Shown one piece after another: positions 9,007 through 33,355 of a stretch of 52,457 bases of DNA. The position numbers and the translations under genes are program-made. The notes below the pieces were generated by a model. The model saw nothing but the letters and a program-made list of their open reading frames with translations. It did no database searches and had not been told where the DNA came from. Position 1 is the stretch's first letter. Every line of letters starts with the position of its first letter. Origin of the DNA: Candidatus Cloacimonadota bacterium (GTDB lineage Bacteria > Cloacimonadota > Cloacimonadia > Cloacimonadales > JAFGVF01); NCBI GenBank assembly GCA_016838885.1, contig JAEKNW010000215.1:1-52457 (forward strand). The letters are read 5' to 3'.

Positions 9007-9615
9007 ATGCACCTAATTCTAATTGGCGGAGGAACTAGTTCAGGTAAGACTACGATTGCAAAGCAGATTACTAGTCAGTTGAACAATCAAAATGTCTATA
9101 CCTTCTCTCACGATAATTACTACTATGATTTAGCGAATTTATCTCCTAAGGAGATTAAAAAGATTAATTTTGATCATCCGGATGCTATAGACAGCTCAAG
9201 GCTAATCTCCGATGTGAAAGATATTTTGAATAAGCAAGAGATTTATATTCCTGATTATGACTTTATATCTCATCGTCGTATTCAAGGTGAGTTTATCCAT
9301 AATCGTTACGATGTCATTATCCTAGAAGGGATATTCGCACTGTACTTCCCTGAGTTGGTTAAACTAGCTTCACTTAAAGTTTTCGTGGATACTGACGCAG
9401 ACTTAAGGCTTGCTCGAAGAATTGACAGAGATATTAACGAAAGAGGATTTACTATCAATGAAGTGCTAACTCAATATATCGAAACTGTCAAACCGATGCA
9501 TGATATTTTTATCGAAGGGACTAAAAAACAAGCTGATATCATTATACCCGGAGAGAAAAAGTTTGATCGCGTTCTAATCATGATTAATGGCTACTTAAAG
9601 GAATTATTAGGATAA
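9007..9615 (+). CDS. udk: Uridine kinase
   Basis: GGGTSSGKTT P-loop, HDNYY, NFDHPDA, VIILEGIF, RLARRIDRD, ADIIIP. Confidence 0.92.
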   Translation: MHLILIGGGTSSGKTTIAKQITSQLNNQNVYTFSHDNYYYDLANLSPKEIKKINFDHPDAIDSSRLISDVKDILNKQEIYIPDYDFISHRRIQGEFIHNRYDVIILEGIFALYFPELVKLASLKVFVDTDADLRLARRIDRDINERGFTINEVLTQYIETVKPMHDIFIEGTKKQADIIIPGEKKFDRVLIMINGYLKELLG

Positions 9616-9618
9616 ATT

Positions 9619-10746: not shown

Positions 10747-10760
10747 GATAATAAAACATA

Positions 10761-12785: not shown

Positions 12786-12791
12786 GTTAAT

Positions 12792-13838
12792 ATGAATAAA
12801 ATAAAAATTATCTTATTTCTGATCTTGGTTCTTGTTATTGTAAGTTGTAGTAAAGAGGCATATATTGAAGAGAATATTGATGTCCCGGGAGAATACTTAG
12901 AAGAATCTTCTGTATCTACCCAGGAGGATCAGCAAACTATTGATGAGCTAACAAAGCTGCAACAAGTAAAAATGCCAACATATTTGATTGGCCCTGATGA
13001 TAAGTTTCATGCTTATGTCTATAATGAAGAAGATTTAAACACTAAAGAGCTTATTGTTAAGCGTGATGGAACTCTTACATTTCCCTTGATAGGAGAAGTA
13101 CATGTCGAAGGTTTAGAGCTGGAAGAGGCTACTAAGCTTATTAAGCAAAAACTTGAAGCTTATATCACTCATCCTGAAGTTACTATTATCCCTTATGAAA
13201 TAAATAGTGGAACAGTAACTATCCTGGGGAAGGTAACTTATCCTCAACAATATCAAATCAAAGGCGAAATGAGAATATTGGATTTAATTGCTAATGCCGG
13301 TGGTTTAGCTTTAGGTTATTTTCAAAATAATTCTATTGAATTAGCAGATTTAGAAAGATCCTTCATAGTCCGTAATAACAAAGTTTTACCTATTGACTTC
13401 TATGCTCTTATTAAACAGGGAAATATGCTTAATAATATTCCTCTCATGGGAGGAGATTACATCTATCTTCCATCATCAATTAATAGGGAAGTTTATGTTG
13501 TTGGTGAAGTGTTAGAGCAAGGTCATTTTGCCTTCAAAGAGAATATGACACTAGGACAAGTTATAGCTTATGCTCAAGGGTTGAAACCTTCTGCAAAGAC
13601 TTCAACTGTTTATTTAGTGAGAGGAAACTTAAAACACCCAAGATTATTTAAGATTAATTTGGATGCTATCTATCAAGGCAAGATTATGGACTTTAGATTA
13701 AAGCCCAATGATATTGTTTATGTCCCTAAAACCCCTATTGCTAGCTGGAACTTAGTATTAGAACAGATACTTCCAAGTTTACAAGCTGTTCAAACAGGCT
13801 ATATACTGCAAAATATTATTGAAGATACTAACAATTAA
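12792..13838 (+). CDS. wza: Wza-like polysaccharide export lipoprotein (Poly_export + SLBB)
   Basis: Lipobox IVSC, YLIGPDD, DGTLTFPLIGEV, repeated SLBB motifs (VYVVGEV, DIVYVP). Confidence 0.88.
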   Translation: MNKIKIILFLILVLVIVSCSKEAYIEENIDVPGEYLEESSVSTQEDQQTIDELTKLQQVKMPTYLIGPDDKFHAYVYNEEDLNTKELIVKRDGTLTFPLIGEVHVEGLELEEATKLIKQKLEAYITHPEVTIIPYEINSGTVTILGKVTYPQQYQIKGEMRILDLIANAGGLALGYFQNNSIELADLERSFIVRNNKVLPIDFYALIKQGNMLNNIPLMGGDYIYLPSSINREVYVVGEVLEQGHFAFKENMTLGQVIAYAQGLKPSAKTSTVYLVRGNLKHPRLFKINLDAIYQGKIMDFRLKPNDIVYVPKTPIASWNLVLEQILPSLQAVQTGYILQNIIEDTNN

Positions 13839-13843
13839 GTATC

Positions 13844-15196
13844 ATGACTGAAGCCTTAAGTGCCTTTAAGTATGTAATTTTCTTTGCTGTGATGCTGATT
13901 GGAGTGCCATTAGGCTATTCTTTTTCGCTTAAATATGATAAGGTAGAGAGGGCTATATTTTTCTTAATGGTGTTTTTTACTGTTAAGATGGAAGATATCA
14001 ATTTCGTTTCAAGAGAAACAGAGAGGTTAACTTCCAAGGGTTTTGAGATTGGGATGGTTGATATTTGTACAATGATTATCTTTCTTGTAGTTATGCACAA
14101 GAAAGGTATCAAAAACAGAATTCCCAAAGGGGCTCATTGGTATTTTGTTTATTTTGGCTTAAGTGTAATATCCATAATTAATGCTGATTTTGTTCTTTTT
14201 TCTATGTTTGAAGTATGGAAAATGATCAGAATGTACTTTTATTTTTGGACTATCTATAATTATATTGATACAGATAAGAAGTATTTTGATTTTCTCAAAG
14301 GTGTAGCTGCCATTACCGTTTTTGTATTTTATGAAGTGATTAAGCAGAAGTATTTAGATGGGAAGTTTCAAACTGCGGGTCCTTTCCCGCATCAGAATTC
14401 GCTTGTGATGTATATGATTATCTATGGTTCCATTGCCTTTTCTTATCTAATTAACAAAGCTGACTTAGCTATAGATAAATTAGTTGTCTGGTTGATGATT
14501 TTTGGGATGTCATCAGTATCAGTTATTTCCACCCTGTCTCGGGCAGGGTTAGCTTTATATGCTTTTGCCATTGTAATTGTTTTAGGTTTATCCTTTTTTA
14601 ATGGGTTTAATCCGAAGAAGATTGCAGTTACTTTTCTGTTGATTATTATGAGTTTAGCAGTTTTAGCAAAAGCTTGGGATTCAATCACGGAGCGCTTTAG
14701 CACAGCACCAGAAGAATCTGCCTTGGTGCGGGTTTCTTTAGCTCAAGCAGCAGTGAAGATGGCTGGCGATAAGAAGTTAGGTTATATGGGGGTGGGATTA
14801 AATAATTTTGGTAGAGCGATTAACCCTCCATATCCCTATAGTTCACATATTGAGATGCATGATGAAGAAGATGAAGAGGAGAGAAATGGTTTAGTAGAGA
14901 CCATTTATTTAATGATAGCTGCTGAATCCGGGTGGCACACATTAGTATTCTTCTTTGTATTTCTCTTTTATTATTACTTCTTGAACTTAGTAAATGTCTT
15001 TAGATATAAAGGGAGCAACCTGCAATTCCTGTCCATAGGATTAGTTGGAGGCTTGTTAGCAATTTATATTGAGTCTGGTTTAGAATGGGTGTTAAAGCAG
15101 ACGAATAACTTCTATCAATTGATGTTGATTTTTGCTTTAATTGCATCAATGGATAGGCTATATCATATAAAAGTTAGAAAGGGTGAATTGAAATGA
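13844..15196 (+). CDS. O-antigen ligase/Wzy polymerase family protein
   Basis: Many TM segments, GPFPHQN, TLSRAG, GVGLNNF, AAESG. Confidence 0.8.
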   Translation: MTEALSAFKYVIFFAVMLIGVPLGYSFSLKYDKVERAIFFLMVFFTVKMEDINFVSRETERLTSKGFEIGMVDICTMIIFLVVMHKKGIKNRIPKGAHWYFVYFGLSVISIINADFVLFSMFEVWKMIRMYFYFWTIYNYIDTDKKYFDFLKGVAAITVFVFYEVIKQKYLDGKFQTAGPFPHQNSLVMYMIIYGSIAFSYLINKADLAIDKLVVWLMIFGMSSVSVISTLSRAGLALYAFAIVIVLGLSFFNGFNPKKIAVTFLLIIMSLAVLAKAWDSITERFSTAPEESALVRVSLAQAAVKMAGDKKLGYMGVGLNNFGRAINPPYPYSSHIEMHDEEDEEERNGLVETIYLMIAAESGWHTLVFFFVFLFYYYFLNLVNVFRYKGSNLQFLSIGLVGGLLAIYIESGLEWVLKQTNNFYQLMLIFALIASMDRLYHIKVRKGELK

Positions 15197-15600
15197 GGAC
15201 ACCACAAGAAGAACAAGAAAAGAATATTAAACAGATAGGAAGCGATAGATTTAGAGAGAACTTGAATATTGAACAGCGTAATCAGCTTAAATCTATGTTG
15301 AAAAAGATGTTACCTCCTGTTCCTTCCATTGGTATTATAGATATTAGGTTTTCTTTTTGGTTTTTTAGGCAATGGTATGTAGTTTTTATTTTTGGTAGAG
15401 ATACTCGAGAAGGGTTTAAGACTCTTGATAAAGGTGATGTTGATAGATCATTAAGTATTGTAGCGAAAGCAACAACGTATATAGTTATGATGATTACTAT
15501 TCTGATAATGTTGTTATTCTTACTTTATGCTTTAAAGAGTGTGATTGGAATAGATTTGTTTCCAGACAAGCATTTAAGTGATTTTTTGCCTTGGAAATAG
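15193..15600 (+). CDS. Hypothetical membrane protein in the EPS operon
   Basis: ATGA overlap with the upstream gene; C-terminal TM segment; no family recognised. Confidence 0.6.
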   Translation: MRTPQEEQEKNIKQIGSDRFRENLNIEQRNQLKSMLKKMLPPVPSIGIIDIRFSFWFFRQWYVVFIFGRDTREGFKTLDKGDVDRSLSIVAKATTYIVMMITILIMLLFLLYALKSVIGIDLFPDKHLSDFLPWK

Positions 15601-15618
15601 AGTGGAGATGGAGTATTA

Positions 15619-16575
15619 ATGAAATATAATAAAACAGTTGTTACAGCATGTGATAGTAATTATATTTGGGGTGCTTATATCTTAGTTGCCTCCCTATGTT
15701 ATTTTAATGTAAAGAGTTATAAAAAGGTTTTAGGAATTATATTAACTGAAGAGGAACAAGAATTGCTCAATCAATTTCCGGATACACAAGTAGTAAATAG
15801 TAATCGGGAGACAGATAAGAGTGTTTGTTTAATGAAGCCCCATGCTTTTTTCTCTGCTGAGACAGATTTGATAGCTTGGATGGATTCTGATTGTATTGTT
15901 ACCGGAGATGTTACGGATTTTATTGAAGTTGAGGATGATGAGCTTCAGATTAGGTTTAGGTCTTTTGAAGAGAATTCAGGAGTTTATCGTAATTATTATG
16001 GAAAGAATGACGAACCAGGCTTAATACCCCATAAAGTTCTTGATACATGGAGAGTAGATGTTAATGATTATGATGACCCTCAAATATCAACCGTATGTGA
16101 AACGAATTGTTTTGTTATCAGGAAAAAGAACCTAGACTTTATTCAACTATGGAAAACTCAGATGGAGAAGGTGATTATAGATAATAACTTACAGGTTTAT
16201 GATAAAAATAGTGTGGGTTATTTCATGACGGATGAATCTGTTTTAAATTCATTAATGGCTTACTCAAGCAAAGCTTTAAAGGTAAAAGAATATCAATTTG
16301 ATAAAGATAAAAGCAAATTATTAGTTCACTTTGGTTTAAATCCTAAACCTTGGATACATTGGACAAAGCGTGGATTGTTACATTATGATTTAACAATGGA
16401 GATTCTTGATTGGTGCAAAAGGCAGGGATATAAGTTACCTCCTTTTCCATCATCTTTTAGACCAAATAATAAATATAAAGAGCTCTTAATGGCTAATATC
16501 AGACATTATTTTAACTCTTTTAAATACCGAGTTTCTACTACTCTTCACAGTTTTCATAGAAAGGTAAGAAATTAA
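15619..16575 (+). CDS. GT-A fold glycosyltransferase-like protein (GT8-like)
   Basis: TACDSNY start, WMDSDC (DxD), DESVLN, HFGLNPKPW resemble GT8 motifs. Confidence 0.6.
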   Translation: MKYNKTVVTACDSNYIWGAYILVASLCYFNVKSYKKVLGIILTEEEQELLNQFPDTQVVNSNRETDKSVCLMKPHAFFSAETDLIAWMDSDCIVTGDVTDFIEVEDDELQIRFRSFEENSGVYRNYYGKNDEPGLIPHKVLDTWRVDVNDYDDPQISTVCETNCFVIRKKNLDFIQLWKTQMEKVIIDNNLQVYDKNSVGYFMTDESVLNSLMAYSSKALKVKEYQFDKDKSKLLVHFGLNPKPWIHWTKRGLLHYDLTMEILDWCKRQGYKLPPFPSSFRPNNKYKELLMANIRHYFNSFKYRVSTTLHSFHRKVRN

Positions 16576-16577
16576 CA

Positions 16578-17726
16578 ATGAAGATATTAATTATTTCCAA
16601 CTATTACCCACCTCATTTTAAGGGAGGATATGAATTATCCTGTTATGAAGTAACAACTTATTTATATGAACAGGGTGAGGATGTCTTGGTTTTATGTGGA
16701 GATTATCTAAAGAATGAGCCTGATAATCGTAGCAATTATAGAGTTGTTCGTAAGTTAAAATACATAGATTATTTGAGTGATGATTATTGGAACAAGAGTA
16801 AGGTTGAAAAAGATAATTATGAAATGACAACTAGAATTCTTGATGAATTTGAACCTGATTTTGTTTATTTCTGGAATCAACAATATCTCTCTCTAGCACC
16901 CTATTGGGCTGTTAAGAGAAGAAAGATAGCTCATGTATTTGATATTGGGGATGTATGGCCTTTAAAGTATTATAGAGAGGGTTTCAAGGCAAAGGTGAAG
17001 TCTTTTATCAAGAGATTGTTACCTAATTTCAGAGATGCCAAGATGGAGGTTAATCCTGTGATTATCTTATCTGAATGGATGCGACCATTGTTTGTTGAGA
17101 AATTTGGGTCTAAGGAAATCTATAATATTCCTAGAGGGGTAAAGCTCAAAGAAGATCTTCAAATAAACTCAAAAGCTGATGATATCAAGCTGATGTTTGC
17201 TGGAAGAATCGAGCCTCTCAAGGGACTTGAGCTGATTATCAATGTTCTCTCAGGCTTACAAGCTTATAAATGGACATTAGATGTTTATGGTGATGGAGAT
17301 GAAGATTATCTAGAGAGAATAAAATTACTTATTACAGAGAAGTCTTTAGGCCAAAGGGTAATTCTCAAAGGCAAGCTATATCCTTTAGATGAAGCTTACC
17401 AGACTCATGATGTTTTTCTCTTTCCTACTTTAGCAAAAGAGGGCTTTGGTCGGGTTGCTATTGAAGCAATGTCTTATGGTCTTCCTGTTCTTACGGTTAA
17501 TAAGTATGGTCCCAATGATATAGTAGAAGACGGATATAATGGATATAAGGCTTCTCCAAGTGATCTTTCTGCTTGGGCAAATAATTTAAAACAAATATTG
17601 TCAGATAAGGATTTATTGATTAAAATGTCTAATAATGCCCTAGAAACAGTCAAAAATAAATATGATATTGAACTTATCAACAAACAAAGATATGATATTA
17701 TAAAAGATATTTACTACTCAAAATGA
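16578..17726 (+). CDS. GT4 family glycosyltransferase
   Basis: YPPHFKGGYE, FAGRIEPLKG, EGFGRVAIEAM. Confidence 0.9.
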   Translation: MKILIISNYYPPHFKGGYELSCYEVTTYLYEQGEDVLVLCGDYLKNEPDNRSNYRVVRKLKYIDYLSDDYWNKSKVEKDNYEMTTRILDEFEPDFVYFWNQQYLSLAPYWAVKRRKIAHVFDIGDVWPLKYYREGFKAKVKSFIKRLLPNFRDAKMEVNPVIILSEWMRPLFVEKFGSKEIYNIPRGVKLKEDLQINSKADDIKLMFAGRIEPLKGLELIINVLSGLQAYKWTLDVYGDGDEDYLERIKLLITEKSLGQRVILKGKLYPLDEAYQTHDVFLFPTLAKEGFGRVAIEAMSYGLPVLTVNKYGPNDIVEDGYNGYKASPSDLSAWANNLKQILSDKDLLIKMSNNALETVKNKYDIELINKQRYDIIKDIYYSK

Positions 17727-17733
17727 GGTTTTT

Positions 17734-18543
17734 ATGATTAAAGCACTTAAGATAGTTAACTTGTTATTACTTTTTTCTTTTATTGCTGGATGTGCTCCTT
17801 ATCGGAAGTCAATCTACATTCCTAAGGGTGTATTTGAAGAGAAAATTCTTATTCGCTCTGAACCTACAGAGGCCATGGTTTATATTAATGGACGCCAAGT
17901 GGGGGAGACTCCCTTTCGGACATCTCTATTTTATGCTGAAGATAGGTTAATCAACATCAAAGCAGTTCCTATTTATCCTAATCAATTTACCCAGAATATC
18001 TTTGTCAGGGTTCCTCCTATACCTAAGACAATGACTATCTATATGAATGAGAAACCGAACTTTATTTTTGAGACAGAGGATGAGGAAGTTACTCCTCCTG
18101 ACAAGCGACCTCCTGTCGAGCTTGTGAGATATGACACTCTTTATGTAGATAGAATTTCATATTATACAACTCCTACTATTTATTTTGAGTTTGATAAGGT
18201 TGATATAAATAGAGATGATTCTGCTAAGTTAAGAAATCTGGTTCAATTTTTGAAAAAGAACCCGGAAATTTATGTTGATATTCTTGGTGCTGCTGATGTT
18301 AGAGGAGGAGATAGCTATAATATAACTCTTTCTCTGAATAGAAGTAAGGCTGTTGCAGATTTTCTTAATAAGTATGGTATCCCACAAGATAGGCTATATA
18401 CTAGGGGTGTAGGTAGAACAACAATTTATGATGAGTTAGGAAAAGCTATGTCTCATCAGGAGAGTAGGACTGTTATCTTTAATTTATATGTTAACAGGGA
18501 TGATTTTGAAAAAATGAAAAGAGAGTATGAGGATAAGGACTAA
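17734..18543 (+). CDS. PEGA + OmpA-like domain lipoprotein
   Basis: Lipobox IAGC; IRSEPTEAMVYINGRQVGETP (PEGA); IYFEFDK..GAAD..YNITLSLNRS (OmpA C-terminal). Confidence 0.85.
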   Translation: MIKALKIVNLLLLFSFIAGCAPYRKSIYIPKGVFEEKILIRSEPTEAMVYINGRQVGETPFRTSLFYAEDRLINIKAVPIYPNQFTQNIFVRVPPIPKTMTIYMNEKPNFIFETEDEEVTPPDKRPPVELVRYDTLYVDRISYYTTPTIYFEFDKVDINRDDSAKLRNLVQFLKKNPEIYVDILGAADVRGGDSYNITLSLNRSKAVADFLNKYGIPQDRLYTRGVGRTTIYDELGKAMSHQESRTVIFNLYVNRDDFEKMKREYEDKD

Positions 18544-18545
18544 TA

Positions 18546-20141
18546 ATGGCTGAGAATAACTTAAATCTAAGAAAAAGAATGATTGTGAATACTATGTCTA
18601 ACTATGGCAAGTTACTTATCGGGATGATGATAACAATCTTCTTAACTCGGGTTTTGTTCTTGGGGTTAAGTCGGGCTGATTATGGATTTTGGGCACTTTT
18701 ATGGTCAATTTTTGGTTATTCCTTGTTATTAGATTTTGGATTTGGTGCTTCTATTCAGAAATATACTTCAGAAAGTGTTGTAACTAAAGACTGGAATAAG
18801 TTCAATAAGATAGTAAGTACAGTCTTTTTCAATTACACCTTTGTCTCGGTTATTATCATGTTAGTTTCAGTGATTTTAGCTTACAATATCCAGCATATAT
18901 TCACCTTTGAATCAGATTCCATCGAATATTACAAGCGAGCTTTGCTAGTCTTTGGTATAGGTTCCTCAATCGTTTTCCCCATAGGCTTTTTTACAGAAAT
19001 CTTACGCGGTATGCAAGCTCTTCACCTTCGCAATATTGTGGAAATCATTGTAGCAATTCTCAATTTCACAGGAATGCTCTTGATAGTCTATTTCTTCAAA
19101 CTAGATAAACCCTTAATCTGGATGGCTATAGTTGCCATCGGCACTACTTTTATCTCAAGTATCCTAATGGGGATGATCTCACACAGACTTATCCCAGAGT
19201 TAAAAATTCGCTGGCGCTTTTATGATAGAAAGATGCTAAAATCAGTAATGGGTTTTTCTATGTATGCTTATTTAATAACCTTTACTAACCTTATTATCTT
19301 TAAAACGGACCAGCTTGTTATCTCAATCTTTGGTTCTGTTGCTTTAGTGGCTATTTATCAAATATCATCTAGGTTAGCTGAAACATTCAGAACTTTCTCA
19401 AAGCAATTTTTAGATAATCTTGGTCCGGTCTCAGCCACCCTTTTTGCTGCCGGTAATAAGAGTAAGATGGCAGAGATTATGATTCAATCAACCCGCTTAA
19501 TGGGCTTCATTTCAACTTTATTTCTAGTCCCTTTGTTAGTCTATGTCAGACCTCTACTCAAGATTTGGTTAGAATTAGAAGACATTACCGGAGTCATTGT
19601 CGCTGTAATTCTCTTACTCTCAATGTATGTATTACTCTTCTATCGATCAACATCTGTTTATATGCTTTTAATGGCTAATGAACAGAAGAAATTAACAAAA
19701 ATTGCCTTGATAGAATGTATAGCAAACCTTGTTCTTAGTGTTTTCTTAATCAAATATTTAGCTACCATAACAGCCTATTTTGGCTATTCCCTACCTGCTA
19801 ATGGAGAGATAATTGGAGTTGCTTTAGGCACTTTTATTCCTAATATTATTCTAGCTGTTACCTTCAATTTACCTATTGCTGTTAAATTCTGTGAAACTTC
19901 ACTCTGGACTTTCTTAAAGACATCTATTCTTAAAACGAAAGTTGCCGGATTGGTCTATATTACAGTAGCCATTGCTCTCTATAAACTTATAGAACCAAGC
20001 AATATCTGGGTAATTCTACTCAATTCAGGCCTTGCTGTAATTGTCTATATTGCTATATTCTACATGATTGGATTTGAAGGCTGGGAAAAAAAGCAACTTA
20101 AAGGATTTATAGCCACAAAGCTTAAATTAAGAAGAGTGTAA
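18546..20141 (+). CDS. Wzx-type oligosaccharide flippase
   Basis: ~14 TM, ADYGFW, LLDFGFG, KTDQLVIS; last gene of the EPS cluster. Confidence 0.85.
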   Translation: MAENNLNLRKRMIVNTMSNYGKLLIGMMITIFLTRVLFLGLSRADYGFWALLWSIFGYSLLLDFGFGASIQKYTSESVVTKDWNKFNKIVSTVFFNYTFVSVIIMLVSVILAYNIQHIFTFESDSIEYYKRALLVFGIGSSIVFPIGFFTEILRGMQALHLRNIVEIIVAILNFTGMLLIVYFFKLDKPLIWMAIVAIGTTFISSILMGMISHRLIPELKIRWRFYDRKMLKSVMGFSMYAYLITFTNLIIFKTDQLVISIFGSVALVAIYQISSRLAETFRTFSKQFLDNLGPVSATLFAAGNKSKMAEIMIQSTRLMGFISTLFLVPLLVYVRPLLKIWLELEDITGVIVAVILLLSMYVLLFYRSTSVYMLLMANEQKKLTKIALIECIANLVLSVFLIKYLATITAYFGYSLPANGEIIGVALGTFIPNIILAVTFNLPIAVKFCETSLWTFLKTSILKTKVAGLVYITVAIALYKLIEPSNIWVILLNSGLAVIVYIAIFYMIGFEGWEKKQLKGFIATKLKLRRV

Positions 20142-24567: not shown

Positions 24568-25817
24568 TCAAATAGCATTTCTAATTCATCCTTGCCGGTA
24601 GAATCAAAGAAATAGTCCGATGTTATCTCACACCCAGGGTAATAGTGTTTGATTATTCTGCTATAATCCCAGCCTGCATAAGATTTTAAATATCCCCCTG
24701 ATTGACAAAAACCTACTCCATGACCATAACCTTTTCCTTGGATAATGAAGTTATTGCCACTAACTTTAATAATAGCTAAAGTAGAAGGAATCCCTCCTAG
24801 AATAGCTCTTATCCTATCCTGAGATGTAATTGTTTCCTTACCCTGAGAAGTATTAAAAGTGATTTTGTTAATCCTTCCTGAATTATCACGAGAATCAACT
24901 TTAGCTGAATATACTTTGGAAAACTTACCCCTATTAGCAACAGTATTCATGGCTACAGTTCGTTTCCACTGATAGCTGTCTTTAATCCAATTAGGAAGTT
25001 TGGTGTAGTGAGGGTAAACTTTAGCCGGGTCCTTCTTGATCCAATCTTCCACATTTCGATAAGTGCTCATATCTTTCCCTTTCAGATAATCGATATCAGC
25101 TTTATCTTTCAAGTAAGGATAACCCTTCCCACCCCAAACTTGCTCTACATTAGCTAGATAACCACCTCCATAACTGTTAAAAGGAGTGAAGGCAACTTGG
25201 CCTTGATGAGTAACTAGCATGTAGGCTGTGGCATTTGAGGCATCAATCACGTTTTGAGGTACTTTCTTGCTTGTATTAAAGACTTGAGAATAGGTATCTG
25301 CCCGTAAATCCCATGGATAACGGTTGTTCTTCATGGATTCATAGATAGCGTAAGAGCGAGCAATAATGGCTTGAGATTTTAAAGCTTCAGCCGGAGCTCC
25401 TGAACCAATTTCACTCATTACCACGAACCTGGTGTAAGATTCTAAATTCATTAAATTCATTACAGCAATCTTGCCCTTATGCTCACGAATATGAATATCA
25501 CCGGAAAATTGTTGCTTATTATTACCTGCTAAGTAAAAGTTACCGGTTATCGAGATTTCTAGCTTATAGGCTTCATCTTTAAAAGTTTCTCTATCTAATT
25601 TTAAGGTAATCATGCCCTGAGATAAGTTATGGATTCTCAAACTTTTACTTTGATATTCACTACCATTTACAAATACTAAACCATCTGTGGTCAGGTTGAT
25701 ATCATTATCTAATTTTACCAGTATTTTTAAAAATACTTCATTCCCTATCGTCATATAGGCAGGTAATTTTGAAACTAGCAAAAGTAAAATTATAAAAAGA
25801 GTTCTTCTTTTATTCAT
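24564..25817 (-). CDS. SpoIID/LytB domain protein (lytic transglycosylase-like)
   Basis: VVMSEI..EALKSQAIIARSYA, SQVF, GKGYGHGVGFCQSG, IIKHYYPG; N-terminal signal. Confidence 0.9.
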   Translation of the reverse strand: MNKRRTLFIILLLLVSKLPAYMTIGNEVFLKILVKLDNDINLTTDGLVFVNGSEYQSKSLRIHNLSQGMITLKLDRETFKDEAYKLEISITGNFYLAGNNKQQFSGDIHIREHKGKIAVMNLMNLESYTRFVVMSEIGSGAPAEALKSQAIIARSYAIYESMKNNRYPWDLRADTYSQVFNTSKKVPQNVIDASNATAYMLVTHQGQVAFTPFNSYGGGYLANVEQVWGGKGYPYLKDKADIDYLKGKDMSTYRNVEDWIKKDPAKVYPHYTKLPNWIKDSYQWKRTVAMNTVANRGKFSKVYSAKVDSRDNSGRINKITFNTSQGKETITSQDRIRAILGGIPSTLAIIKVSGNNFIIQGKGYGHGVGFCQSGGYLKSYAGWDYSRIIKHYYPGCEITSDYFFDSTGKDELEMLFD

Positions 25818-25847
25818 TAATGAATCCTTATTCTCATGATGTTTACC

Positions 25848-25876
25848 ACTTTACTCAATATGTAAATTGATGTCAA
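25848..25876 (-). promoter_or_regulatory. Sigma70-type promoter of the SpoIID-like gene
   Basis: Minus strand TTGACA-17 bp-TAAAGT. Confidence 0.45.
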
Positions 25877-25914
25877 GTAATTGTGCTTTGGATTTACTTC
25901 GAGAGGGCTTATTA

Positions 25915-26380
25915 ACTGGGAGTACCACTGGGAACGCCACTGGGAGCGCCTTCATCCCTGAAGGCAAAAAGATGAATGCCGGCAAGATGCTCTTGTGGAG
26001 TGGAAGCGTCCCGCTTCCACAACCAAGCTTTATCAAACTTGGTTAAATCTGGCGGCAAGATGCCCCCAGTCCATATCCCCTCGTTTCAGCTAGCAGGAGA
26101 TTGACAGCTGAGATACATTCTGGCAACAAGTGGTATGGAGTGGAAGCACCCTTGCTTCCACAACCAAGCTTTTCAAAGCTTGGTGAAATCTGGCGGCAAG
26201 ATGCCCCCAGTCCATATTCCCTCGCTTCAGCTAGCAGGAGATTGATAGTTGGGATACATTCTGGCGACCAGTGGTATGGAGTGGAAGCGTTTCTGGGAGC
26301 ATCACTGGGAGCGCCTTCATCCATGAAGGCAAAAAGATGAATGCCAGCAAGATGCTGGCGCTCCCAGTGGCGCTCCCAGG
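25915..26380. repeat. Palindromic REP-like repeat array, left flank of the DGR island
   Basis: ~140-bp tandem units (TGGAAGC at 26001, 26141, 26282) with GTGGAAGCG-tcc-CGCTTCCAC and CCAAGCTT..AAGCTTGG hairpins; 12-bp ACTGGGAGCGCC end modules; GC-rich relative to flanks. Confidence 0.9.
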
Positions 26381-26415
26381 GTTTTCAAAAAGACTATATT
26401 GTTTTAAAATTTTAT

Positions 26416-26449
26416 TTGACAACTTTGCACTAAGATCAATAATTTGATC
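26416..26449 (+). promoter_or_regulatory. Sigma70-type promoter of the DGR operon with an inverted repeat over the -10
   Basis: TTGACA-16 bp-AATAAT; GATCAA-taat-TTGATC palindrome at 26434-26449. Confidence 0.5.
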
Positions 26450-26464
26450 AAATGTGGAGGAATT

Positions 26465-27598
26465 ATGAAAAAAATATTTCTATTTATATTGTTTGGAGCT
26501 GTATCAGCTCTAATGGCAAACAATGTTCCTGTGGTATCTAATATTTCAGCTTCACAGCGAGGAGATGGAAGTTATATTGTAGATATTTACTATAATGTGC
26601 ATGATGCTGATGGAGACCCAATGACAATTACTTTACAAGTCTCTCCTGATAGTGGATTGACCTGGACTTTTAGCTGTACTCAAATCTCAGGTGATGTTGG
26701 AGCTAATATTTATTCCGGTAATAATAAGCATATTGTCTGGAATTTAGGCTCAGAACATCCCAATATTGCAGGTAATAGTTTTAAGTTTAGAATCAATGCT
26801 TATGATGGTATTGATGTTGACCCATTTGACTGGAGTTATGTAAGTGCCGGTACTTATACATGGGGACAAAATGACCAAATGCAAACTCTTGATTATGATT
26901 ATATGATAATGACCTATGAAGTAACAAATGCCCAATATAAGCAGTTTCTTGATGAAGCCCTAGGTATGGGAACAGCATGGATTTCGGGTAATTATGTTCA
27001 GGCTTATTATCCTGGTGATGAACATATCTCAGCAGGTAATCAAAATCTCTATGCTTTGGGTACACCATCTTCTTACAAATATGCTCAAATTTCATTTTAT
27101 GAAGGTGATTTTTATATTAATGAGCCAAGTGGTTATAACGATGGAGATTTTGACAACCATCCTGTAGTTTATGTAACATGGTTTGGTGCTTGGGCTTTTG
27201 CTCAGCATTATGATTTACGGCTTCCCACAGAACAAGAATGGGAAAAAGCGGCTAGAGCTTCTACAGGATATGAATATCCTTGGGGAAATTCATTAAGTGG
27301 TAATAGAGCTAACTATCGTGATTCAGGAGATCCCTGGGATAATGGAACAAGCCCGGTTGGTTATTATAATGGACAAAATGGGACTATAGACAGTCCTTCT
27401 CCTTATGGACTATATGATATGTGTGGCAATGTTCATGATTGGACTGATAGCTGGTATAATTCTGCCAATCGAGTCTTGCGTGGCGGTATTTGGGGCTACA
27501 GCTCTTACTACGACTATTTACGCTCGTGGTACCGCTACTACTACACTCCGACAAACAGCAGCTACAGCATCGGTTTTCGATGTGCCAGGACTCCATAA
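26465..27598 (+). CDS. DGR target protein: secreted, N-terminal Ig-like domain + FGE-sulfatase/SUMF1 (CLec-fold) domain with C-terminal variable region
   Basis: GGAGG RBS then MKKIFLFILFGAVSALMA signal; YEVTNAQY, HPVVYVTW, RLPTEQEWEKAAR, YPWG, GLYDMCGNV, RVLRGG, GFRC; 3' end matches the TR. Confidence 0.93.
   Translation: MKKIFLFILFGAVSALMANNVPVVSNISASQRGDGSYIVDIYYNVHDADGDPMTITLQVSPDSGLTWTFSCTQISGDVGANIYSGNNKHIVWNLGSEHPNIAGNSFKFRINAYDGIDVDPFDWSYVSAGTYTWGQNDQMQTLDYDYMIMTYEVTNAQYKQFLDEALGMGTAWISGNYVQAYYPGDEHISAGNQNLYALGTPSSYKYAQISFYEGDFYINEPSGYNDGDFDNHPVVYVTWFGAWAFAQHYDLRLPTEQEWEKAARASTGYEYPWGNSLSGNRANYRDSGDPWDNGTSPVGYYNGQNGTIDSPSPYGLYDMCGNVHDWTDSWYNSANRVLRGGIWGYSSYYDYLRSWYRYYYTPTNSSYSIGFRCARTP
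27463..27587 (+). repeat. DGR variable repeat (VR)
   Basis: 125-bp ungapped match to 29136-29260 with 15 mismatches, all at TR adenines. Confidence 0.97.
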
Positions 27599-27630
27599 TG
27601 GACCCTTGTGATTTGTACCTTGGTACTTGT

Positions 27631-27651
27631 AAATCGGGCAAAGCCCGATTT
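27631..27651. other. DGR target-recognition hairpin/cruciform downstream of VR/IMH (may double as terminator)
   Basis: Perfect 9-bp stem AAATCGGGC-aaa-GCCCGATTT about 33 nt after the target stop; T-run follows. Confidence 0.75.
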
Positions 27652-27677
27652 CGAATTTTTTTTAGAGATTGAATTAT

Positions 27678-28028
27678 ATGAATAATACTAAAGAATTACC
27701 AATTATTCAAATGACTTATGATATAATTAAGTGGTTGATTCCAAATATTGATAAGTTACCTAGAACTCAAAAGTTTGTGTTGGGAGATAGAATAGAAATA
27801 GCATTTTTAGATTTTCTAAAATACATTTCTTTAGCTTCTAAAACGAAAGATAAATATGAGATTCTTACCATAGCAGATGCCAAGCTCATGGAAATAAAAT
27901 TGCTGTGTAGATTAATAGTAGATTTAAAATACATATCTATTAAGCAATTTGAGTATTTAAGTAAACAGTTATCTGAAATGGGAAAAATGTTAGGTGGTTG
28001 GATAAAATCAATTGAGTGCAGAAAATGA
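27678..28028 (+). CDS. avd: DGR accessory variability determinant Avd (four-helix bundle)
   Basis: ~116 aa, LPRTQKFVLGDRI and GKMLGGW motifs; lies between target and RT (track start TTG 27669). Confidence 0.9.
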   Translation: MNNTKELPIIQMTYDIIKWLIPNIDKLPRTQKFVLGDRIEIAFLDFLKYISLASKTKDKYEILTIADAKLMEIKLLCRLIVDLKYISIKQFEYLSKQLSEMGKMLGGWIKSIECRK

Positions 28029-29422
28029 AAACATTCAAAAATCTTTGGGAAAGCTTTGTAAGTTATGAAAATCTATTTATTGCTGCTATAAAAGCCTGTC
28101 AAAGGAAACGTTATAAACCAGCAGTCTTAGAGTTCAATAATAATCTTGGAGAAAATTTGCTGCAACTTCAAAAGGAATTACAGGATGGAGAATACATGCC
28201 TGGTAGTTACAAGTATTTCAAGATTACAGAACCAAAGGAAAGAGATGTTTATGCTGCACCATATAGAGATAGAATTGTTCATCACGCTTTGTTAAATGTG
28301 CTTGAACCAATCTGGGAAAAAAGATTTTATTATCATTCTTATGCCTGCAGAAAAGAAAAAGGAATGCATAGAGCAATCGATATTTGTCAAAAATACATAA
28401 GACAAAATAAATATATTCTCAAATGTGATATCAGAAAGTATTTTCAAAGCATTGATCATAAATTGTTGATGCATATAATCAAAAAAAGAATTGCTGATAA
28501 AAAACTCCTTGATTTGATATTCATGATTATAAATTTTTCTCCCCAAATGGACACACCCTATATTCTCTATTCAAATGATGATTTATTTACATATTTTGAA
28601 AGAAAAAAGGGTGTTCCTATTGGAAATCTAACCAGTCAATTTTTTGCAAATGTGTTTCTTAATGAATTAGATCACTGGGTTAAGCATAATAATAAAATTA
28701 AACATTATATAAGGTATATGGATGATTTCCTTTTATTTCATAATTCAAAAAGCTATTTAAGAAATGTAAGGCAACAAATGGAAGGTTTTCTTGACTCGAT
28801 GAGGTTAACTTTACATCCTCAAAAAACACAAATACTCCCTTCAAAAGATGGAGTGGCTTTTCTTGGGTTTCATATAAAATCAGATGTTAAAAGATTAAGA
28901 AAAGCTAATATTCAAAGATTTGTTAAAAGAATGAAAATTCAACAAAAATTATATTCTAATTACTCTATTGATTTAGCATATATAAAACAATCTATAAATG
29001 CTTGGATTGGACATGCCGGTCATGGCGATACATATAAATTGATCGCTAAACTGTTGTATAACTATCCATTGAAGAGGGGAAGAGATAGAAACTTAAATGA
29101 TGATTATAAGTACTTTGCGAATAGATCGAAAGATTTGCCAATCGAGTCTTGCGTGGCGGTAATTGGAACAACAACTCAAACAACGACAATTTACGCTCGT
29201 GGTACCGCAACAACAACACTCCGACAAACAGCAACAACAACATCGGTTTTCGATGTGCCAATACTTAAAAAAATATCTGACCAAGAGCTTTACGGAGCTT
29301 TTGGAGATTATGGAGTCCAGATCTATTCCAGCTGTAAAAGGCGAAAAGAAAAAAACACGAGGCAGTTAGTAGGTAACGAAAGCTGCCAAAGTCTTTTTAA
29401 TAGTAACACGTTAAAGGTTTAA
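28025..29422 (+). CDS. DGR reverse transcriptase, with C-terminal extension reading through the TR
   Basis: [39 protein letters not shown] (DGR-type SQ), YMDD; ATGA overlap with avd. Confidence 0.96.
29136..29260 (+). ncRNA. DGR template repeat (TR)
   Basis: AAC-rich invariant copy of the VR (15 AAY codons in the target frame, 42 adenines); diverges after TGTGCCA (IMH*). Confidence 0.95.
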
Positions 29423-29432
29423 AGGAGAGTAA

Positions 29433-32400
29433 ATGAAAAAACTAATATTAATATTAATTATTTTACTAGGGATAGCATATTTATCTGCTGAAAGAGAATC
29501 TGCTTATGCAATTTCAGAAGTTGTGAGGTTAAACACAATTATTCCCTATCATGATGAAAGTTCATTTTCCTTATCAAGCAAATATAGATTGACTTCTTTG
29601 TTAGGAACCGGGTCTTTTGCAGTTTCTGAAAATGTTATATTAGAAACAGGAGGACAAAATTATTCAAGCTTGAGAGTTGTGCCTGTTGCCATGGCCCCCA
29701 ATCCTAGTACTATCCAGATACCAGAGTCTGGTTATGGCTATGCCTGGTTTGCTTTAGAAGGATTAATAGAGGGGAATTGGCTCCCAATTCATTCAAACAA
29801 TATAATTGCTCAAGATTCACAGGGACGAAGTTATAATTGTCAATCAGGCTCAGTATTGTATGGGTTTTTAACAGCTCCTTGGCAGATGCAGAATATAGGG
29901 ACTTTCTGTATTAAGATCGATGCAAACTTGATAGGAGATATAGGTTCAACAGAGAATTTTACTATAACAAGTGTAGATGGAAACTTGCTTTCATCAAGTC
30001 AAACTGTTAATGTAGAAGTTGTACCAATCGAATTTGTAGCAGGTTGGGAATATCGGTTGTGGTCGAGTATTGGAGTAAGCGCTAATGCTGGAATAGGTCC
30101 ATTAAGTATGGCTTCAGTTGGGGTTGGAATAGGTGGAGGATTAGGTTCTAATCTTGAAATTAAGTATGACTCATCTACGGACACATGGAATGAATTTGTT
30201 ATTAAGAGAACAGATGATCTTTTTTTGGAGGCAAATGCCCACGTTGGTGCTCCCAAATTCGGGGGTATACACCAAGGGGTTAGTGCAGAAGTGGAAGCAG
30301 GGATTAAATTTCCTTACACACAATCTTATGAATTTGATATAAATGACCTAGAGGGAGTTGAATCTCTTTTTGCATTCTATCTTATGTATGAACCTGCTAT
30401 TATTTACGCCGGTAGTCTTGCCAATAAGCAAACTGCAGTTTCATTGCTATCATGGTTGGCAGAGGGGATTATTGAAAACTCAGATGAATATAATTTAGGT
30501 ATTTCAAGAGTTTATGACCAATCAGGAATAGATATGTTTGCTGGTGCTGGAATTGATCTTGGTTGGGGGAATGAGAACTATCCGGTAGAATTTGGAGCAT
30601 CAGCAAGTTTTGGAGCAGAAGCCCATATTGGAATGAACTGGAGAAAATTTGTAAATAACAGGAGGGAGAGTGAACTATACACTTATGGTAACCTATCACT
30701 TTCTGCTCATGCAGGTTCAACCGGGAAAATCTGTGGAGTAAACTCTTCAAAATTCAAACTTGGGAAGACTTACGGAGGTTCATTAGGTGGAGGCTTTAGG
30801 TTCACTTCAGGTTCAGATCATAATGGATATTTAGATAAATTAAAATTAGAAATGTTTTATAATTCCGATGTAGCAGAGCTTAACATTGCAGGTATGAATG
30901 GAGAGCAATCTCAGTATAGTTTCTATCTGGAAGCAGAGCAAACTGATTTGATAAACTTGATGAATAATGCAGCCGATTTACCCTCCGAAATCTATAATAT
31001 TGGAGAATCTGCTTTTACTGCAGCAGTGGATAATAACTCTTTTAGTTCTGATATTTCCAATATCTTAGAAACTATCTACGAAGAACAAAACGATGATTAT
31101 CCGGTTTCTATAGCTTATGGTGTAGATGGTATGAGTAAAAGTTCTTCTGAGTATGAAATTGAGCTGGCGATTCCATTAGCTTCACCTTTACATCTTAATT
31201 TTGGAACCGGACTTTCCTTTGGTGATTATTATAAATATAATCTATATAATGGATATTGGGTAAGAGGCATGCCATATTTACAATCTGAAGTAGTTAATCC
31301 TCCTACAAAAAATCAAACTTTTACAGGGGTAATGAATGAACTCTGGGATAGGGTTACTAGTGGTGATACATGGAGTCAATTACGGGGTATTATTTTACGT
31401 CAATTACTAAAAACTGCAATAGGTTGGATTCCGGGCTTAAGGGATCAAGAACAAGCAATTGAAATTAATACAAATGGGTCTGAACTAATTATTCAAGAAT
31501 TTTCTATACCTACAAGTATTGATAGTGCCTTTGTAAGGTATTGGACTTGGAATGAAGAACCTCCACAAAGAAATATGAGCTATAATCAAAGGCAATCATT
31601 AAGCAACTTTAACAGAGCATTAAGAAGTGTAAGAGAAGAAGCTGTGGGAATGAAATATGGTATTGGGGGATTTTATTCTCTTGAACCTCACAATGAAAGT
31701 TTTGCTGATACAACTAAAATCAGAATTAAATACTCTGATGCAGAAATTACAGGTCTTGATGAATCAACACTCTCTGTTTATTGGGAAGATGAAGTAGGAG
31801 GATGGCATTATTTACCTTCCATTGTTGATACTGATTTAAACTATGTTGAAGCTCGAATTACTGACTTTAAAACTTATACTTTAGCCCCTGCTTTACCTCA
31901 AGGACAATTTGGAATGATGTCTAACCCTGATTCCTTAGAAGCAAATGGAGCTACAACTGCTATGATTACTTCTGACTTGATTACTAATAATAATGGTAGT
32001 CTTGTTGAAGATGGTACCGAGTTTACTATTCAAATCACAAACTCAATAATTATTACACCAGATGCAAATCTTCAGAAAGAAGGACATCAATTAATGTCTT
32101 CTAATGGGATTTTACAATATGAAATTCAATCAGGACAAGTTGCTCATCCAATTGAGATTGTTGTGGCTTCTATTAATGGATTTGCTTACTCAACCTTAAC
32201 AATAAACCAGTATGATTATTCTGCTCCTCAAGCACCAATCAATTTATCTGGTATACCTCTTCATAAATCCATATTGCTGAATTGGGAAGAAGCATCAGAT
32301 ATTGATTTAGCTGGATATGTTATTTCCTATGACACAGATCAAAGTGGAGAACCATATAACGGAACTGCAAATGTTAATGGAATAAATAGTCCTATTACTT

Positions 32401-32756
32401 TAGGATGCATAGATAGTTATCGTCTTTCTGGGTTAACAAATGATCAAACATATTACATTACAGTTCAAGCTTTTGATGTAGCAGGAAATGTTAGTGATTT
32501 TTCAAATGAAATAGTCCTTTTACCACAACTAAATGAAGTAAAGGATTTATCGATTCAAGCAAGTGTTAACGGTACAGTCTTAAATTGGTCTCCAGTTATA
32601 GGAGCAAACTCCTATAAAATTTATCGTAGTTCTTCACCTATAGAAAACTCTTCCAGAATAGAGTTGATAAAACAAACAACAGCTACTCATTATACTGATA
32701 TACAAGCATTGAATTCTGATAAATACTTCTATGTTGTGGTGGTGGTAGCTTATTAA
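29433..32756 (+). CDS. Large secreted protein with Gly-rich beta-strand region, Ig-like (Big_1-like) and fibronectin type III domains
   Basis: AGGAG RBS, signal MKKLILILIILLGIAYLSA; PDSLEANG..VEDGTEFT Ig-like segment; APQAP..LNWE..DLAGY..LTNDQTYYITVQAFD Fn3; second Fn3-like C-terminus. Confidence 0.75.
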   Translation: MKKLILILIILLGIAYLSAERESAYAISEVVRLNTIIPYHDESSFSLSSKYRLTSLLGTGSFAVSENVILETGGQNYSSLRVVPVAMAPNPSTIQIPESGYGYAWFALEGLIEGNWLPIHSNNIIAQDSQGRSYNCQSGSVLYGFLTAPWQMQNIGTFCIKIDANLIGDIGSTENFTITSVDGNLLSSSQTVNVEVVPIEFVAGWEYRLWSSIGVSANAGIGPLSMASVGVGIGGGLGSNLEIKYDSSTDTWNEFVIKRTDDLFLEANAHVGAPKFGGIHQGVSAEVEAGIKFPYTQSYEFDINDLEGVESLFAFYLMYEPAIIYAGSLANKQTAVSLLSWLAEGIIENSDEYNLGISRVYDQSGIDMFAGAGIDLGWGNENYPVEFGASASFGAEAHIGMNWRKFVNNRRESELYTYGNLSLSAHAGSTGKICGVNSSKFKLGKTYGGSLGGGFRFTSGSDHNGYLDKLKLEMFYNSDVAELNIAGMNGEQSQYSFYLEAEQTDLINLMNNAADLPSEIYNIGESAFTAAVDNNSFSSDISNILETIYEEQNDDYPVSIAYGVDGMSKSSSEYEIELAIPLASPLHLNFGTGLSFGDYYKYNLYNGYWVRGMPYLQSEVVNPPTKNQTFTGVMNELWDRVTSGDTWSQLRGIILRQLLKTAIGWIPGLRDQEQAIEINTNGSELIIQEFSIPTSIDSAFVRYWTWNEEPPQRNMSYNQRQSLSNFNRALRSVREEAVGMKYGIGGFYSLEPHNESFADTTKIRIKYSDAEITGLDESTLSVYWEDEVGGWHYLPSIVDTDLNYVEARITDFKTYTLAPALPQGQFGMMSNPDSLEANGATTAMITSDLITNNNGSLVEDGTEFTIQITNSIIITPDANLQKEGHQLMSSNGILQYEIQSGQVAHPIEIVVASINGFAYSTLTINQYDYSAPQAPINLSGIPLHKSILLNWEEASDIDLAGYVISYDTDQSGEPYNGTANVNGINSPITLGCIDSYRLSGLTNDQTYYITVQAFDVAGNVSDFSNEIVLLPQLNEVKDLSIQASVNGTVLNWSPVIGANSYKIYRSSSPIENSSRIELIKQTTATHYTDIQALNSDKYFYVVVVVAY

Positions 32757-32771
32757 TTTTCTAGGAGATGA

Positions 32772-33264
32772 GGTATGGAGAGGAAGTGTTCTTTATGGAG
32801 TGGAAGCGTCCCGCTTCCACAACCAAGCTTTATCAAGCTTGGTTAAATCTGGCGGCAAGATGCCCCCAGTCCATATCCCCTCGCTTCAGCTAGCAGGAGA
32901 TTGACAGCTGGGTTAGATTCTGGCAACAAGTGGTATGGAGTGGAAGCGTCCCGCTTCCACAACCAAGCTTTTCAAAGCTTGGTGAAATCTGGCGACAAGA
33001 TGCCCTTATGGAGTGGAAGCGTCTCGCTTCCACAACCAAGCTTAATCAAGCTTGGTGAAATCTGGCGGCAAGATGCCCCCAGTCCATATCCGCTCACTTC
33101 AGCTAGCAGGAGATTGATAGCTGGGATACATTCTGGCGACAGGTGGTATGGAGTGGAAGCGTTACTGGGAGCCTCACTGGGAGCGCCTTCATCCCTGAAG
33201 GCAAAAAGAAGAATGCCAGCAAGATGCTGGCGCTCCCAGTGGCGCTCCCAGTGGTACTCCCTGT
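32772..33264. repeat. Palindromic REP-like repeat array, right flank of the DGR island
   Basis: Same unit as 25915-26380 in the same orientation (TGGAAGC at 32801, 32941, 33014, 33153), ending in GGCGCTCCCAGT 12-mers. Confidence 0.9.
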
Positions 33265-33355
33265 GGCGTTCTCAAAAAAACACCACCACAATTATCTTGA
33301 CATATAATTAAAACACTAAAAAGCTATATCATATCAAACTAAAAGGTAAATAAAT

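Follow-up and report, generated by a model that had tools for sequence, protein, structure and literature searches.

Diversity-generating retroelements (DGRs) are, to our knowledge, the only natural system that hypermutates a chosen segment of a protein. More than 30,000 DGRs have been catalogued (Roux et al., 2021), and a grouping of the DGR reverse transcriptases (RTs) of Cloacimonadota with one another has been noted (BMC Genomics, 2024). The present analysis concerns a contig of a Candidatus Cloacimonadota bacterium (JAEKNW010000215.1 of GCA_016838885.1, an assembly of 3.34 Mb in 350 contigs that is rated 99.3% complete; C215 and G000 in our lists). The entire contig of 52,457 bp was analyzed and is hereafter called the window. 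Between 26.4 and 29.4 kb, its plus strand carries, in this order, a target gene with a variable repeat (VR) at its C-terminal end, a terminator-like hairpin, avd, an RT gene, and a template repeat (TR). We hold with high confidence that this cassette is a chromosomally encoded DGR of the avd-RT-TR type with a single target, a protein with a C-type lectin (CLec) fold of the formylglycine-generating enzyme (FGE) type. The locus is a further example of a known, already catalogued kind of system and not a new kind; given the size of the catalogue and the Cloacimonadota RTs already noted, one further cassette is not news. Its value lies in being an unusually clean, single-target, non-phage DGR in which each RNA element described for the Bordetella phage has a predicted counterpart that can be placed to the nucleotide. 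It also marks a binding protein that is hypervariable and probably secreted, in a lineage of anaerobes that has not been cultured.

The cassette shares with the DGR of Bordetella phage BPP-1 (gene order mtd-avd-TR-brt) the adenine-specific transfer from TR to VR, the combination of Avd with an RT that has the IGxxxSQ and YMDD motifs, and the position of the VR at the C-terminus of a CLec-fold protein. Further likenesses concern the predicted RNA. The spacer has a hairpin behind the TR and a priming motif of the form ...C-A-G, and a duplex spans the TR (Naorem et al., 2017; Handa et al., preprint). In addition, the primer RNA complements the VR flank better than it does the TR flank (Naorem et al., 2017). 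However, the window locus is cellular rather than phage-borne, has the order avd-RT-TR with the TR located after the RT domain and inside the RT reading frame, and has a target domain of the FGE type instead of the Mtd tail fibre. It also lacks the (GC)14 element of BPP-1. The last block common to its TR and VR is AT-containing, and its stem-loop is 43 nt from the VR and is accompanied by a T run. Finally, its Avd is too diverged for a sequence match in the PDB, and its RT is at most 42% identical to phage RTs.

The gene order avd-RT-TR corresponds to Architecture B2 of Wu et al. (2018), of which cyanobacterial (Nostoc-type) DGRs are examples. In addition to gene order, the window shares with B2 DGRs the FGE/CLec-type VR framework (...GFRC...), the spacer motif ...GAGTCC-AG..., and an RNA region of the Rfam RT-14 type. 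However, the RT of the window is only 40–46% identical to those of B2 loci, and many B2 loci have two or three targets, whereas the genome of the window has one. Moreover, the primer element in cyanobacterial loci pairs about equally well with the TR and VR flanks, whereas that of the window strongly favours the VR flank. The third point of comparison is TvpA of Treponema denticola (2y3c), which has the same FGE subtype of the CLec fold (TM 0.57 on the target), with its variable residues likewise at the C-terminal end. It is secreted or surface-located, as the window target probably is, and both belong to cellular DGRs that are not phage-borne. The two proteins share only 20% identity, 2y3c is absent from the PDB sequence-search matches, and the window target has an extra N-terminal beta-sandwich domain. 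The Treponema DGR belongs to Architecture C with an HRDC accessory gene (Wu et al., 2018), whereas the window has a B2 cassette with avd.

Template and Variable Repeats

The VR and the TR align over 125 nt without a single gap, and all 15 mismatches have an A in the TR (15 of its 42 adenines), with T in the VR at 10 of these positions and G at five. The hypergeometric chance that 15 of 15 mismatches fall on A is 1.1e-8. The gapless length and the restriction of all 15 mismatches to 15 of 42 adenines exactly reproduce an initial annotation made from the sequence alone, which had described a complete DGR consisting of a target with VR, a hairpin, avd, RT, and TR; the adenine-specific repeat pair, Avd, RT, and C-terminal VR were all found. 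That annotation had also placed the break of homology after TGTGCCA, which the comparison of flanks confirms. Past the common ...TGTGCCA, the VR goes on with GGACTCCATAA and the TR with ATACTTAAA, and the two 3' flanks, compared as IMH and IMH* (initiation of mutagenic homing), split right after ...GCCA with non-A changes included.

In the frame equivalent to that of the VR, the TR has 12 AAC and three AAT codons (15 AAY codons in total), with adenines at codon positions 1 and 2. Overall, 19 of the TR adenines are at position 1, 17 at position 2, and five at position 3, and no TR codon can be converted to a stop codon by adenine substitution. The theoretical repertoire is about 3.6e21 proteins. 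A search for remote VRs had been proposed and was run: blastn of the TR against the whole 3.34-Mb assembly found only the TR itself and the known VR, and a scan of the whole assembly with the TR-A positions masked (using the whole repeat or three sub-windows) found no further VR. Among the relatives, a second, upstream VR-like copy is apparent in locus L027 of genome G018 (481–549 and 2912–3052; 12 mismatches to its TR over 69 nt, 11 of them at A). Judged from these repeats, the G018 DGR appears to have two targets, compared with one in the genome of the window.

Reverse Transcriptase and Avd

RTs of the DGR clade are recognized by the IGxxxSQ variant of RT motif 4 together with YxDD. The IGNLTSQ and YMDD motifs reported initially are both present in the translation of the RT open reading frame (ORF), and, where avd had been described as translationally coupled to RT, the avd stop codon and the RT start codon overlap as ATGA at 28025–28028. 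Avd scores 111.7 bits against the NCBIfam model NF033474 (DivGenRetAVD; cutoff 80) and matches the Pfam bAvd family (5e-19), whereas a sequence search of the PDB with Avd gave no match at E <= 0.01. For the RT, the best PDB match is 8ub7_A (E = 9.3e-46), compared with 7.7e-22 for the best group II RT. We take 8ub7 to be the Bordetella phage bRT; the code is absent from the preprint text of Handa et al.

For phylogenetic and structural comparison, 88 loci were examined, of which eight are from the source genome and its relatives and 80 are from the genome_contigs set. A quick maximum-likelihood tree of 94 RTs includes 86 of the 88 corresponding RT rows; rows with fewer than 300 matched query residues or with an internal stop were dropped. 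The window RT forms a group of three with those of G040 and L032 (SH-aLRT 99), and both of these loci have their own A-biased TR/VR pair. More broadly, the window RT is among 87 rows that are split, with a support of 100, from seven multi-copy group II-like RTs. One row classed as "other" (L017) falls on the DGR side through a very long branch. The RT phylogeny that had been proposed as a check thus groups the window RT with TR/VR-bearing loci and not with group II-like RTs, and the outcome named beforehand as refuting, a clustering with group II or retron RTs, does not arise.

The closest RTs are 56% identical among 40 relatives, 56% in genome_contigs, and 56–60% in metagenome_contigs. Those at 56% belong to another family of the same order and to a metagenome-assembled genome (MAG) labelled Candidatus Neomarinimicrobiota. 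No near-identical locus that would allow a comparison of VRs was found in the 40 relatives, genome_contigs, or metagenome_contigs, and no close relative was found in viral_contigs.

The source genome has a second RT (contig C77:592–1305, minus strand; locus L005), which is 31% identical to the DGR RT and is one of the seven group II-like RTs. Its partner in the tree is an element present in 12 copies in G003, a genome of the same genus, which makes a group II intron RT cut at the contig end its probable identity.

Target Protein

Residues 141–375 of the target match the Pfam family PF03781 (FGE-sulfatase; E = 3.9e-37). An AlphaFold2 model built with 58 homologues has a mean pLDDT of 89 and contains an N-terminal helix (residues 2–16) that resembles a signal peptide, a beta-sandwich at about residues 23–114, and then the FGE-type domain. 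In a Foldseek search with this model, formylglycine-generating enzymes are at the top (E of about 1e-14), and the T. denticola DGR variable protein 2y3c is at rank 41 (E = 2.7e-10). The proposed CLec/FGE fold is therefore borne out by Pfam, by the model, and by Foldseek. The VR occupies codons 333–375 of 377 and ends the FGE-domain ORF as in known DGR targets. The signal-peptide-like N-terminus suggests that the protein is secreted, and together with the fold and the C-terminal VR it supports the view that the DGR diversifies a secreted binding protein.

In the homologues of the target, variable positions lie between the blocks of a common invariant framework (R-V-x-R-G-G-x-W ... L-R-S-W-x-R ... 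G-F-R-C). The sources of these homologues assign them to MAGs of Candidatus Cloacimonetes or Stygibacter, and the sequence of one, P0037, is encoded without a single difference in G040, which belongs to the same order as the window genome. Membership of the host in Cloacimonadota is therefore most likely.

Cassette Organization

The features of the cassette are listed in Table 1. All three ORFs (target, avd, and RT) are open, and the catalytic motifs are intact. An A-biased repeat pair is present in 53 of the 88 loci and is at least 90 nt long in 49. Among these 49 loci, the TR is downstream of the RT in 40 and upstream in nine. All four same-order relatives with detectable TR/VR pairs (G040, G018, G014, and G001) are built like the window cassette.

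Table 1. Coordinates of the features of the DGR cassette in the window.
Feature	Position	Strand	Basis or remark
Promoter-like site 5' of the target gene	26416–26443	+	TTGACA, 16 nt, AATAAT; 11/12 consensus match only
Target gene, 377 aa	26465–27598	+	Signal-peptide-like N-terminus, beta-sandwich, FGE-sulfatase/CLec-type domain, VR at extreme C-terminus
Variable repeat (VR), target codons 333–375	27463–27587	+	TR/VR alignment; VR end is 11 nt before ORF end
VR 3' flank, IMH-like, spanning the TAA stop	27588–27599	+	Unlike TR flank; exact reverse complement of 29307–29318
Stem-loop with T run, terminator-like	27631–27663	+	9-bp stem and 3-nt loop AAA at 27631–27651; begins 43 nt past VR end
avd accessory gene, 116 aa	27678–28028	+	NCBIfam NF033474 DivGenRetAVD, Pfam bAvd
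Reverse transcriptase ORF, 465 aa	28025–29422	+	RT homology stops near 29134; last 96 codons cross TR and spacer in another frame
TR-bracketing duplex, upstream arm (predicted counterpart of BPP-1 "cPRT Stop" duplex)	29116–29127	+	Minimum-free-energy fold
Template repeat (TR)	29136–29260	+	42 A; 15 AAY codons in VR-equivalent frame
Spacer RNA region	29264–29395	+	Aligns along the entire RT-14 model (Rfam RF02921), with a score under the threshold
10-bp hairpin with UACG tetraloop (predicted counterpart of Avd-binding stem-loop)	29281–29304	+	Minimum-free-energy fold
Primer element (12 nt) and putative priming A29319 in conserved ...CC-A-G motif	29307–29319	+	VR-flank complementarity; priming nucleotide by analogy with BPP-1
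TR-bracketing duplex, downstream arm	29320–29330	+	Minimum-free-energy fold
Spacer RNA 3' hairpin, 7-bp stem	29361–29387	+	RT-14 alignment, minimum-free-energy fold

The TR begins two bases after the RT-homologous part, and the RT frame, which differs from the VR-equivalent one, stays open through the TR and the spacer. A functional role of this extension was considered and rejected. In the 40 loci with a downstream TR, the RT-frame stop is before the TR in 27, inside it in nine, and after it in four; because it precedes the TR in most of these loci, the read-through tail in the window is regarded as incidental. As for transcription, the region contains 16 promoter-like sites, compared with 15.2 in shuffled sequences, so that there is no excess. 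By analogy with BPP-1, the stem-loop after the VR is a candidate for a DNA stem-loop that aids homing.

Spacer RNA

The RT-14 model aligns over its full length (positions 1–144) to the spacer region, which starts 4 nt past the TR. Features of the family that are kept are its inner hairpin, its 3' hairpin, and the ...UAUUCC segment. Judged from its position and these common sub-structures, the window spacer can be described as RT-14-like, below the family threshold. Among 20 related loci scanned, three (L100, L028 of G014, and L034) have an RT-14 match above the gathering score at the equivalent place.

The minimum-free-energy fold of 29095–29425 contains the 10-bp UACG hairpin, an 11-pair duplex that brackets the TR, and the 3' hairpin. 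For the ribonucleoprotein (RNP) of the Bordetella phage, an Avd-binding stem-loop and a "cPRT Stop" duplex have been described and were found in 207 of 278 Avd-bearing DGRs (Handa et al., preprint). The fold predicts that the spacer elements of this RNP (post-TR hairpin, primer segment, and bracketing duplex) are present in the window. In related loci, arms of a bracketing duplex in the same register with different sequences were counted by eye in about nine of 49, an exact arm of at least 8 nt occurs somewhere in 14 of 49, and the downstream arm starts right after the conserved ...CC-A motif.

A side observation concerns the closest relative, in which an Rfam Intron_gpII domain (L025 of G040, 5070–5152, minus strand; 52.5 bits) is located just downstream of the DGR.

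Primer Element and VR Flank

Between the UACG hairpin and the downstream arm of the bracketing duplex lies a 12-nt element, ATTATGGAGTCC, which is followed by A-G. Its reverse complement is identical to the 12 nt past the VR, a length reached in none of 300 spacer shuffles, whereas it matches the collinear TR flank at only six of 12 positions. In BPP-1, the corresponding motif is spC55-A56-G57, and A56 primes cDNA synthesis (Naorem et al., 2017). The similarity of ...CC-A-G in the window to this motif suggests A29319 as the putative priming nucleotide. The complementarity of the BPP-1 primer RNA to the VR flank (IMH vs. IMH*) has been proposed, speculatively, as an aid to homing (Naorem et al., 2017). 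A similar preference for the VR flank is seen in all three members of the RT subclade, with matches of 12 (VR) and 6 (TR) of 12 in the window, 9 and 6 in G040, and 10 and 6 in L032. Since the primer element fits the VR flank perfectly and pairs poorly with the TR flank, the locus is a good natural test case for how the cDNA locates and enters the VR.

A clade-wide preference of the primer element for the VR over the TR was considered as a rule and rejected. In a motif-anchored count of 34 loci, from which loci not matching the anchor regex were dropped, the VR flank fits better in 15, both fit equally in six, and the TR flank fits better in 13. The longest exact complements for 61 flanks have nearly the same mean for the VR (6.70) and the TR (6.79). 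In comparison, a complement of at least 8 nt between VR flank and spacer occurs in 23% of cognate pairs and 7% of non-cognate pairs. An unconstrained complement search that allowed G-U pairs chose spurious registers. At the two nucleotides beside the priming A, complementarity to the VR and not the TR was counted in 24 of the 34 loci, the reverse in none, both in three, and neither in seven; as this count was made by eye among related loci with the register chosen on the VR, the apparently widespread asymmetry toward the VR is suggestive only. We tentatively raise the possibility, which we are more inclined to doubt than to accept, that the 12-nt segment 5' of the priming A acts as a guide RNA for the homing site. 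If so, a short RNA-DNA duplex that can be reprogrammed would determine both the directionality from TR to VR and the choice of target in this large DGR clade, an idea that Naorem et al. (2017) put forward speculatively for BPP-1.

In related loci, pyrimidines dominate the coding strand over the 30–40 nt past the VR (T 45%, C 27%). CCCT(T)-type motifs occur in 41 of 62 VR flanks (30 of 49 loci) from several phyla, compared with three of 62 TR flanks, and the counterpart in the window is GACCCTTG at about 27601–27608. Such motifs could be part of target-site recognition.

Taken together, these elements can be arranged into a proposed mechanism. The RNA over the RT 3' end, the TR, and the spacer would fold so that the duplex brackets the TR, the UACG hairpin would dock the Avd-RT complex, and the primer element would loop back to the TR at its 3' end. 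With its own RNA as primer, the RT would next reverse-transcribe the TR, misincorporating opposite adenines, and the RNA-linked cDNA would replace the VR of the sole target gene, possibly by RNA-guided homing. Should A29319 be the priming nucleotide, one unbroken antisense strand made of primer RNA and cDNA would extend over the VR boundary, and the better fit of the primer to the VR flank (12 of 12 positions, vs. six for the TR flank) could explain the one-way flow from TR to VR. In this way, the presumably ligand-binding C-terminal face of a secreted protein could exist in up to about 3.6e21 variants.

Natural Variation and Activity

Evidence for recent homing comes from a single sequencing run (X1), an aquatic metagenome in the form of contigs, which are unable to show rare variants. 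One contig of 98 nt (depth 3.2) lies on 27510–27597, and all seven of its listed differences are at TR-A sites, whereas only 27 of the 78 underlying TR positions are A (p = 3e-4). The contigs that adjoin this VR variant differ at only 1 of 133 and 7 of 279 letters. A VR variant that is changed at A sites only and lies beside near-identical flanks suggests homing since two closely related populations split. We read this as evidence of recent homing, which comes from one low-depth contig of one run and possibly from a sister strain. The initial description of the DGR as apparently functional holds for the intact ORFs, TR design, and RNA elements; it does not extend to current activity in this strain, which we infer.

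Several observations weigh against the preferred reading of the locus. The X1 run contains only 5% of the sampled words, at depths of 2–7. Its contig on the TR has, in addition to 11 A-site changes, one T>C change and a 3-nt insertion, and may therefore stem from another, related DGR. No promoter for avd-RT was identified in the region, and the hairpin past the VR, at its distance of 43 nt, resembles an ordinary terminator. With 36.3 bits (E = 0.0018 on 401 nt), the RT-14 match does not reach the gathering score of 48.1, and the outer stem of the family is non-canonical in the window, with non-pairs and a 6-nt deletion. Moreover, the whole DGR RNA fold is not more stable than those of shuffled sequences (z = -1.26), the TR flank and the primer element can form only about 4 bp, and the clade-wide count given above does not favour the VR flank.

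Genomic Context

Apart from the cassette, 37 other window ORFs of at least 120 aa were scanned with Pfam; the fn3 protein described below was scanned separately. No phage-like gene was found among these 37 ORFs, nine of which have no Pfam match at the thresholds used. The matched ORFs all belong to cellular families (NadE, RibD, SpoIID, CoaBC, QueA, LigA, LptF/G, MetRS, MsrAB, ExbBD, adenosine deaminase, and a polysaccharide cluster). The earlier statement that the window lacks phage genes thus holds for the ORFs scanned, and this cellular gene context supports the classification as a chromosomal, non-phage DGR.

Gene content and composition around the cassette are variable. The G+C content of avd-RT is 0.26–0.30, compared with 0.33–0.40 in the surroundings. 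The DGR and the adjacent fn3 gene (26430–32793) are flanked by two repeat arrays in direct orientation (25841–26430 and about 32793–33264). The arrays are made of a dispersed repeat with a 141-nt unit that is relatively G+C-rich and has internal inverted repeats. The left array contains 2.1 tandem units at 25996–26288, a further copy is at 48514–48604, and the family has 199 blast matches over many contigs, often at contig ends. In the complete same-genus genomes G001 and G003, SpoIID and CoaBC are 13–18 kb apart with other genes between them, and this rearranged region contains neither the DGR nor the fn3 gene. The two genes are unlinked in G002, G004, and G006, and no clean empty site can be defined in the compared genomes. 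G001 does have a DGR-type RT, which is located elsewhere and is 38% identical to that of the window.

Alternative Explanations

The least probable alternative, to which we give almost no credence, is that the locus is not a DGR and consists of a group II intron or retron-type RT beside a duplicated gene fragment. The top NCBIfam RT score is indeed that of a group II RT/maturase model (TIGR04416), and public annotations of related phage RTs often read "retron-type." However, this score (176.2 bits) is far under the cutoff of 300, as are those for retron St85 (58.9; cutoff 235) and Drt3a (63.9; cutoff 200) under theirs, and the RT is far below all cutoffs of the NCBIfam group II, retron, DRT, and AbiA models. 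Rfam Intron_gpII has no match in 25700–29600, and the group II-like RT of the same genome (C77) is placed across the branch with a support of 100. The restriction of all mismatches to adenines, the bona fide Avd upstream, and a repeat that ends an FGE-domain ORF exactly as in known DGR targets are further points against it, and as far as sequence analysis reaches, the non-DGR reading is refuted. A second alternative accepts the DGR but regards it as structurally intact and now silent, with the 15 differences between VR and TR as a record of past homing. The X1 variant may come from a related strain (the flanking contigs are 97.5–99% identical), TR and primer pair weakly in the window beside the putative priming site, and no near-identical locus was found for comparison of the VR. 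These points are offset by three open ORFs with intact catalytic motifs, by a TR that retains all AAY codons, by the presence of the RNA elements, and by the A-site-only variant beside near-identical flanks, and we consider a silent DGR improbable.

The remaining alternative concerns origin only and is compatible with the DGR mechanism. On this view, the DGR came in by horizontal transfer as part of an island, or is carried by a degraded mobile element, and is not long established in the chromosome, in which case the target may serve the element and not the cell. The location in a variable, repeat-flanked region, together with closest RTs that are only 56–60% identical, suggests that the cassette may have been horizontally acquired; the low G+C content of avd-RT, the lack of DGR and fn3 gene in the G001 and G003 regions, the divergent and differently located RT of G001, and the placement of the closest RTs (56%) in another family and in a Candidatus Neomarinimicrobiota MAG point in the same direction. 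However, the scan of the 37 other ORFs yielded no integrase, transposase, phage structural gene, or plasmid gene, identity to phage RTs does not exceed 42%, no close relative was found in viral contigs, and the flanking repeats may be coincidental given that their family occurs in many contigs. We consider an acquired island rather unlikely. A chromosomal avd-RT-TR DGR that diversifies a single FGE/CLec-fold protein remains the preferred reading of the locus.

Neighbouring Genes

Downstream of the cassette, the fn3 gene (29433–32756) encodes a protein of 1107 aa that begins with a segment resembling a signal peptide and carries its fn3 domain at the C-terminus. It starts 11 nt past the RT-frame stop and overlaps the end of the DGR spacer region. 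Since it has no similarity to the TR, the fn3 protein is not a DGR target. Farther downstream, an ORF of 136 aa (32901–33311) has no Pfam match and lies inside the right repeat array; for these reasons it is probably not a gene. Upstream of the DGR, a large polysaccharide biosynthesis and export cluster extends over 1661–20141 and includes several group-1 glycosyltransferases as well as WecG/TagA, Bac_transf, Wzy_C, Poly_export/SLBB, and OmpA-like genes.

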